Origin: Escherichia coli | Lineage (GTDB): Bacteria > Pseudomonadota > Gammaproteobacteria > Enterobacterales > Enterobacteriaceae | Assembly (NCBI RefSeq): GCF_003334305.1 | Contig: NZ_QOWS01000013.1 | DNA length: 64,000 nt | Reading direction: 5' to 3' (one strand) | Part shown: positions 21,617 to 23,846 of the stretch, in pieces | Position numbering within the stretch: position 1 is the first letter of the stretch | How the letters are laid out: each line of letters opens with the position of its first letter | Notes under the pieces: model-generated | The model's input: only the letters and a program-made list of their open reading frames with translations | Databases searched by the model: none | Told to the model about the DNA's origin: nothing | Program-made: the position numbers and the translations under genes

Positions 21617-23050
21617 CTAATTGTTCTGATAAATATCTTTATACAAACGGCTTTCAAAACGCACTAACGGAATACGGCGATTACGCTGATCCGCCGGTTC
21701 TACTGCATAGCCAGAAAGATATTGTACAAACGCCATTCGTTGCCCGCTCGCTGTGGTAATGAATCCCGCCAGGTTATATACCCCCTGCAACGAACCGGTT
21801 TTCGCTGAGACTTTTCCATCCACGCCCGCCTGATGCAGACCTGCACGGTACTGCAAAGAGCCGTCATAGCCCGCAAGCGGCAGCATGGAGATAAAGTTAA
21901 GTTCATTGTCGTGTTGGGCAATGTATTGCAGCACCTGCATCATGGTGGCGGGGGCAATCAGGTTATGCCGCGAAAGCCCTGAACCATCGGCAATAATGGT
22001 GTTTCCAATATCGACACCGGCTTGCTGGCGCAGGATCTGACGCACGGCGTCCGACCCGGCCCGCCATGTTCCAGGCACATTGAAGCGCGCATGGCCTATC
22101 ATGCGGAAAACCGTATCGGCGATCATGTTGTCCGACTTTTTCAGCATAATCTTAAGCAGATCGTGCAACGGGGCCGACTGTTTACTGGCAACTACCGTTC
22201 CAGGTTCGTTAACCTGAGTCTGGCGCAGCAGTGTTCCGCTCCAGGTGATACCTGCCTGTTTTAACTCATCTTTCAGAATTGCCCCGGCATAGCTGGCTCC
22301 ATCCTGCACGGCAAAAGCCAACGGGAGCGGCTCAGAACGTTGTGGCAGGCATCCCGTCAGCGTAAAGCGGTTCAGGTCGCCTGGTACGACATCCAGTTCG
22401 CAGTATTGCGCTTCGGCAGAACCTCGGGGGAGGGTGCGTACCTGGCTGAACATCGTAACGGGGTAATAAGATGCCACGCGTATAAAAGCCATATCACCAG
22501 GTTTTGGGGCACTGTAGAGCGAGACGGAGAAACAGTTGCGGTCAACTATGGCAGCGGCAGGCGGAGCGCTAAAGCATTGTGTCATGTCATTCCATGGCCA
22601 GCCGGGGGCTTTATCGTGGCTGGCGAAAATGGAGGTATCTATCAACACATTGCCATCGATTTGGTTGACGCCAGATTTTTTCAAAGTCGCGACCATATTG
22701 CGAATATCCTGACGTTTTAACGTCGGATCGGCACCAAATCGCGCCACTAAGTCACCCTTAAGTACGCCGTTTTCCACATTGCCTTTGGTTTCAAGCGTCG
22801 TGGTGAAACGAAAATCGGGGCCGAGTTGAATCAACGCCGCCAGCGCAGTAATCACTTTCTGCGTACTGGCGGGCAGCGCCATCTGCTGACTGTGGTAATC
22901 AATAGCGGGGGCCGACGCGCCGACTTTTTGCACCATCAGGGCAAGGTTGGCACCAGCGGGGAGTTGAGTAACGTACTCATCAACATTCGCGGCCTGAACA
23001 CTGAACGCTATACAGCTGGTCAATCCGATGATAAATCTGGAAAATCGCAT
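21617..23050 (-). CDS. dacB: D-alanyl-D-alanine carboxypeptidase/endopeptidase PBP4 DacB, 477 aa
   Basis: Signal peptide plus SxxK-containing PBP4 translation (PASTQK). Confidence 0.96.
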   Translation of the reverse strand: MRFSRFIIGLTSCIAFSVQAANVDEYVTQLPAGANLALMVQKVGASAPAIDYHSQQMALPASTQKVITALAALIQLGPDFRFTTTLETKGNVENGVLKGDLVARFGADPTLKRQDIRNMVATLKKSGVNQIDGNVLIDTSIFASHDKAPGWPWNDMTQCFSAPPAAAIVDRNCFSVSLYSAPKPGDMAFIRVASYYPVTMFSQVRTLPRGSAEAQYCELDVVPGDLNRFTLTGCLPQRSEPLPLAFAVQDGASYAGAILKDELKQAGITWSGTLLRQTQVNEPGTVVASKQSAPLHDLLKIMLKKSDNMIADTVFRMIGHARFNVPGTWRAGSDAVRQILRQQAGVDIGNTIIADGSGLSRHNLIAPATMMQVLQYIAQHDNELNFISMLPLAGYDGSLQYRAGLHQAGVDGKVSAKTGSLQGVYNLAGFITTASGQRMAFVQYLSGYAVEPADQRNRRIPLVRFESRLYKDIYQNN

Positions 23051-23170
23051 AATCTCGCGCTAACAACCTGGAATCGAGCCGTCATACTACGGCGCAACGC
23101 CCTATAAAGTAAACGATGACCCTTCGGGAACTTCAGGGTAAAATGACTATCAAAATGTGAATTGTAGCTG

Positions 23171-23203
23171 ACCTGGGACTTGTACCCGGGTCGGTATTTT
23201 TTT
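23171..23203 (+). terminator. Terminator/attenuator hairpin in the greA leader (source of GraL short transcripts)
   Basis: Hairpin ACCTGGGACTTGTACCCGGGT followed by T7, about 95 nt upstream of the greA ATG. Confidence 0.5.
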
Positions 23204-23297
23204 GCTTCTGGTCCCGGTGAGGAGTTATGCCGGGCAGGCCGAACAGCCGGGGTGGGTGAAGACTTGCCCCATCAGGAATATTCAAGAGGTATAACAA

Positions 23298-23774
<477 letters not shown>

Positions 23775-23817: not shown

Positions 23818-23846
23818 AAAAAGGCCGCTATGCGGCCTTTTATCAA
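23818..23846. terminator. Bidirectional terminator between convergent greA and yhbY
   Basis: Hairpin GGCCGCTATGCGGCC flanked by A and T runs. Confidence 0.65.

Follow-up and report, generated by a model that had tools for sequence, protein, structure and literature searches.

The segment at positions 23167-23207 of the window, that is, of the whole 64,000-nt stretch of E. coli chromosome analysed here, is almost certainly the published intrinsic terminator of the E. coli greA leader, which generates the GraL small RNAs. A comparison with the GraL terminator of E. coli K-12 (PMC2836576, PMC6829880) reveals the same element, with no difference within it. The published description fits the window base for base: the 11-bp stem followed by AU7GCU2, the start of P2 11 bp after that of P1, and the landmarks at +19, +48 and +59 are all found in their places. 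The element, its products and its regulatory role are already in print (2010 and 2019), and nothing in this respect is new here.

In the window, dacB (21617-23050, minus strand) is followed by greA on the plus strand and then by yhbY, rlmE and ftsH, a gene order with which the RefSeq annotation of the matching region agrees, and the greA open reading frame scores 293 bits against the NCBIfam GreA equivalog NF001264 (cut-off 180). Positions 23160-23210 of the plus strand read AATTGTA GCTGACCTGGG ACTTGTA CCCGGGTCGGT A TTTTTTT GCTT, and the features of this region are collected in Table 1. The stem of the hairpin contains 11 pairs, seven of which are G-C and the others A-U or G-U. A terminator pattern scan reports exactly the 23167-23207 site, on the plus strand. 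The folding energy of the hairpin RNA is -19.6 kcal/mol, compared with -9.15 +/- 2.19 kcal/mol in 200 dinucleotide-preserving shuffles (z = -4.77), none of which folds as well. The site is an intrinsic (Rho-independent) terminator in that a G+C-rich hairpin is adjoined by a U-rich tract on the transcribed strand. The final T of the U7 tract is located 95 nt before the greA ATG (23298) on the coding strand; sequence, scan and folding thus agree with the earlier note, which had placed a hairpin followed by T7 about 95 nt upstream of this ATG.

Table 1. Coordinates of the greA leader and its surroundings in the window
Feature	Positions and parts	Strand	Basis
greA P1 promoter (sigma-70)	23116-23144; -35 ATGACC 23116-23121, 17-nt spacer, -10 TAAAAT 23139-23144	+	promoter scan
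greA P2 promoter (sigma-E)	23127-23154; GGAACTT 23127-23133, 16-nt spacer, TCAAA 23150-23154	+	consensus match
Unpaired 5' segment of GraL (+1 to +18 from P1)	23149-23166	+	folding; published scrambling
Terminator hairpin	stem I 23167-23177 GCTGACCTGGG, loop 23178-23184 (7 nt), stem II 23185-23195 CCCGGGTCGGT	+	scan, folding, covariation, published mutants
U-rich tail A-U7-G-C-U-U	23196-23207; A23196, T7 23197-23203, GCTT 23204-23207	+	sequence
Read-through part of greA leader	23208-23297	+	AAGAGG 23284-23289, 8 nt before the ATG
greA coding sequence, 158 aa	23298-23774	+	ORF list, NCBIfam NF001264, RefSeq annotation

The published numbering fits the window in a single way. In the papers, the stem begins at +19, the A that follows it is +48 and AU7GCU2 ends at +59 (PMC2836576, PMC6829880), and P1 initiates with ApU, whereas P2, 11 bp downstream of P1, initiates with ApA (PMC2836576). 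We infer that P1 starts at A23149 and P2 at A23160, because only these positions fit +19, +48, +59, ApU and ApA together; positions 23160-23161 are AA, as expected for ApA initiation at P2. With 3' ends at 23196-23207, the GraL RNAs are therefore 48-59 nt long from P1 and 37-48 nt long from P2, in agreement with the papers. An exact match to the sigma-E consensus GGAACTT N16 TCNAA stands at 23127-23154, and this is the sole match in the 64-kb window, with 0.05 expected by chance. The hairpin is located upstream of greA, on the same strand and downstream of both P1 and P2, and the interval 23160-23205 marked in the earlier note is in effect the P2-initiated GraL, its first position being the published P2 start. 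No start sites further upstream were found in the 2010 study, in which the bands P3 and P4, seen by primer extension, were attributed to processing (PMC2836576).

The Rfam model RF01769, 'Enterobacteria greA leader', matches 23081-23202 with 127.5 bits (gathering score 60, E = 3.2e-24). The match spans model positions 1-124 of 124, and the model's 3' hairpin corresponds to the terminator stem; model positions 1-71 appear to be promoter DNA, upstream of the mapped start or across it, and transcription is known for no more than about the final 55 positions. Every one of the 5426 complete E. coli genomes contains the 271-bp dacB-greA intergenic region, 5399 of them with at least 99% identity. Throughout the promoters, GraL segment, hairpin and tail, the window is identical to a laboratory E. 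coli strain, and the only differences, at 23219 and 23270, both fall downstream of the tail in the read-through leader. Two more G+C-rich hairpins are predicted in this read-through leader, at 23209-23234 and 23249-23269, and the two strain differences are located in or beside them. These hairpins might be related to the P3 and P4 bands.

The earlier note had proposed that premature termination at this hairpin gives short GraL transcripts, and this has been published for exactly this sequence (PMC2836576). Potrykus et al. 2010 mapped two strong overlapping promoters, sigma-70 P1 and sigma-E P2, and reported that about two-thirds of the greA transcripts end in the leader, with approximately 60-66% termination in vitro and in vivo, at a terminator composed of an 11 bp stem and then AU7GCU2 (PMC2836576). 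The GraL RNAs measure 50-60 nt when started at P1 and 40-50 nt when started at P2. With pure RNA polymerase, the short RNAs are released to the supernatant from immobilised templates in a factor-independent manner, and termination in vitro is insensitive to Gre factors (PMC2836576). The 3' ends of GraL, located to +/-2 nt, scatter over approximately 10 positions, and termination is imprecise; mutation of the stem base alters both the efficiency and the precision of termination, and shortening of the stem from 11 to 7 bp lowers the efficiency approximately four-fold (PMC2836576). On Northern blots, GraL forms clusters at approximately 55 and 45 nt, so the blot for 40-60 nt transcripts that had been suggested as a check already exists, and at single copy GraL is barely detectable on the 2010 Northern (PMC2836576). 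A literature search for Term-seq evidence naming GraL found no paper, and an mBio 2014 transcriptome paper merely cites the 2010 GraL study.

The feedback by GreA was analyzed by Dylewski et al. 2019, who found that GreA autorepression is promoter-independent, requires catalytically active GreA (the D41A mutant fails) and correlates with more GraL (PMC6829880). Autorepression depends in cis on two elements, the segment from +1 to +18 and the hairpin in its native sequence: it is weaker when +1 to +18 is scrambled, and a construct devoid of the sequence 3' of +59 is still repressed by GreA (PMC6829880). Hfq, the Nus factors and sigma-E are not involved. GreA raises termination at GraL rather than relieving it, and this effect has never been reproduced with pure components in vitro, from which the authors inferred an extra factor or an indirect route (PMC6829880). 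The suggestion in the earlier note that greA expression could be sensitive to the state of the elongation complex is likewise supported: GraL in cis and active GreA are needed, with the qualification that the effect does not appear with pure components.

The leader was surveyed across Enterobacterales using one genome per species and a search pattern tied to the promoter and independent of the hairpin, which yielded 120 loci. At 102 of these loci, greA (71-100% identity) is located 119-280 nt (median 158) after the equivalent of P1 +1; the other loci are 14 unrelated chance matches in non-enteric genomes and four truncated contigs. The greA-linked loci are from Escherichia, Yersinia, Serratia, Pantoea, Erwinia, Pectobacterium, Dickeya, Brenneria, Lonsdalea, Sodalis, Rahnella, Tatumella and others, and the sequence-based, pattern-anchored alignment of their leaders samples only genomes that keep this promoter. 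All 103 leaders (the 102 and the window) form a single hairpin of 8-18 bp with a median energy of -18 kcal/mol, which usually starts at +14 to +21, and 97 of them carry at least five U within 9 nt after the stem.

Pairing of the E. coli stem was counted in the 93 distinct leaders, in which 85.2% of the cells are paired, compared with 56.5% and 59.2% when the partners are slid by one column. Compensatory changes are present, with both partners altered in eight of the 11 stem pairs. There are 50 double-change cells versus 23.9 in shuffles, and the covariation score of the stem is 0.292 versus 0.226; none of the 500 shuffles reaches either value, an excess that the relatedness of the sampled genomes may inflate. 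The slid-partner control keeps this relatedness and still singles out the proposed stem register, and the terminator structure is maintained in evolution. RNAalifold on the sequence-based alignment recovers only six central pairs (-3.5 kcal/mol), with MAFFT misregistering the variable loops and the lower stem, and for this reason the pair counts on the E. coli structure and the separate folding of each leader were used.

Apart from the window, the uninterrupted AU7GC tail is found only in four leaders, which come from Escherichia and a single close relative; seven of the 93 leaders have the G-U bottom pair. In most genera the bottom pair is C-G and the tail is interrupted, as in U3CU4G, and the longest U run is four in 52 of the 93. 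The 2010 paper ties imprecise termination to the AU7GC tail and the G-U bottom pair (PMC2836576); since neither is general among the sampled genera, the imprecise termination, and perhaps the feedback too, may be lineage-specific. Additionally, GUGAA at +9 to +13 (23157-23161; GCAAA in most genera) is able to pair with UUUGC at 23201-23205, which would lengthen the hairpin of the released GraL. A partner of this kind, in the U-tract or just after it, is present in 84 of the 93 leaders; neither side shows more than slight variation, and P2 overlaps the 5' one, which makes covariation uninformative for this pairing.

The greA leader lacks what defines a classical attenuator or a riboswitch, as its discoverers also say. 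A classical attenuator, in which an upstream antiterminator competes with the terminator, was the proposal of the comparative survey behind the Rfam model: Naville and Gautheret 2010 described a 'clear antiterminator structure' for greA leaders (PMC2965389), and RF01769 contains three helices upstream of the terminator. However, these helices are located at 23081-23151, before or across the P1 start at 23149, and are therefore absent from the P1 and P2 transcripts; the survey reached as far as 200 nt upstream from each predicted leader terminator and disregarded start sites (PMC2965389). Over 80 distinct sequences, the covariation of the upstream helices is 0.014 versus 0.016 in shuffles, with one double-change cell, in an alignment whose columns 53-75 are partly fixed by the search pattern, and one pair is broken in 37 of 79 sequences. 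The 5' helices were rejected as RNA structure, as they show no covariation and their pairs break where one side varies, and they are read as conserved promoter sequence. When the nascent RNA is folded before stem II is available (P1 +1 to +36, and from the P2 start too), it reaches only -0.2 kcal/mol, and no stable competitor of the terminator appears. A classical attenuator is thus very improbable. The term 'attenuator' is used in the earlier note; the authors themselves doubt this label for the greA leader (PMC6829880), and neither an antiterminator nor a conserved leader peptide is found. For the curation of RF01769, about two-thirds of the model appears to be promoter DNA rather than RNA structure, apparently taken in through the survey's disregard of start sites.

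Control of hairpin formation by ribosomes translating from the AUG at 23155 (+7) is extremely improbable. This AUG is present in every sampled leader, and in many genera it opens a frame of 3-5 codons that ends at or inside stem I; the search pattern, however, demanded an AUG, which makes the invariance automatic. The stretch before the AUG is only 6 nt long and holds no Shine-Dalgarno sequence, and P2 transcripts start downstream of this AUG. Its overlap with the -10/start region of P2 explains its conservation, and termination is reproduced in vitro without ribosomes (PMC2836576). Translation from the +7 AUG in 92 distinct leaders yields frames that vary from 1 codon to over 50 and share no conserved peptide. 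In E. coli, the frame is a start-stop, ATG-TGA, at 23155-23160 (+7 to +12 of the P1 transcript), which is probably a by-product of the sigma-E -10/start region. The leader does not behave as a riboswitch in its sequence either, with only 18 unstructured nt before the hairpin and no match to an Rfam riboswitch family. The SreA riboswitch of Listeria, a dual-function 5' leader that is freed by premature termination and has a second role in trans, was named as a comparison (PMC6829880); GraL differs from it in having no ligand-binding aptamer and no alternative structure, and, in contrast to leaders of the SreA type, the effector GreA promotes termination at GraL rather than relieving it.

It has also been suggested that GraL acts in trans, and the greA leader could be chiefly the gene for such an sRNA, with nudE mRNA as the proposed target and the effect on greA as a by-product. 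Overproduction of GraL raises fitness and changes the expression of more than 100 genes (PMC2836576), and the 2019 paper cites nudE as a likely trans target and terms GraL a dual-action sRNA (PMC6829880). However, GraL supplied in trans leaves greA fusions unaltered (PMC2836576, PMC6829880), and a cis element is necessary for GreA autoregulation (PMC6829880). Outside the hairpin, the only segment transcribed is one of 18 nt that coincides in part with P2, so its conservation need not mean pairing with a target. A role chiefly in trans is unlikely, although far from implausible, and an sRNA acting in trans is compatible with the cis role of the leader. That the hairpin and its T-run are a chance combination without function is scarcely credible: terminator-like patterns do arise by chance, at 1.9 +/- 1.4 per shuffle of the 1.5-kb region, but the folding z-score of -4.77, the compensatory changes across genera and the direct experiments all counter this explanation, and the published mutagenesis refutes it. 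Inside the greA coding sequence, a weak terminator-like hairpin of 6 pairs with a T-run is present at 23536-23551 (plus strand), which is within the chance range of the scan.

Several other features surround the leader. The sequence AAAGTAAAC at 23106-23114 is invariant, every position of the adjoining GATGACCC (23115-23122), in which the P1 -35 lies, is either invariant or conserved to at least 90%, and CATACTACGG (23084-23092) is at least 90% conserved in all sampled genera. The conservation of 23084-23092 and 23106-23122 exceeds the needs of a -35 element and, from the sequence alone, could reflect an UP element for P1, a divergent dacB promoter, or both. A candidate dacB promoter is present on the minus strand, with TTTACT from 23113 to 23108, an 18-nt spacer and TAGTAT from 23089 to 23084, approximately 27 nt before the dacB ATG; the 2010 study detected no dacB transcripts under the conditions used (PMC2836576). 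At 23819-23841, in the interval that separates the convergent greA and yhbY, the perfect palindrome AAAAGGCCGC-TAT-GCGGCCTTTT, flanked by A and T runs, makes a 10-bp hairpin and is a bidirectional intrinsic terminator of textbook form. On both strands this hairpin matches the terminator portion of Rfam STnc540 weakly, below the threshold.

At the published GraL terminator, transcription begins at the overlapping sigma-70 P1 (+1 at 23149) and sigma-E P2 (+1 at 23160), and an unstructured RNA of 18 nt (P1) or 7 nt (P2) emerges before the 11-bp hairpin forms. The hairpin and the AU7GCUU tract then release about two-thirds of the transcripts with scattered 3' ends, the remaining third is read through to give greA mRNA, and the terminator thereby sets a fixed ceiling on greA expression. 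In vivo, the terminator is also the site at which GreA represses its own gene, more active GreA leading to more GraL and less read-through. GreA presumably raises termination either directly, together with a partner, or indirectly through another gene product; when transcription is run in vitro with purified components, GreA leaves termination unaffected. One direct route, which we consider quite improbable, is that complexes that have passed U7 and reached GCUU backtrack into the U-tract, and that GreA-stimulated cleavage, together with a cofactor, sends them once more through the release zone of approximately 10 nt, so that termination becomes more likely overall. If this second passage were to occur, the greA leader would be a sensor of secondary-channel occupancy. 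In E. coli, the leader provides a well-defined system for how a transcript-cleavage factor increases intrinsic termination in vivo but fails to do so in vitro.
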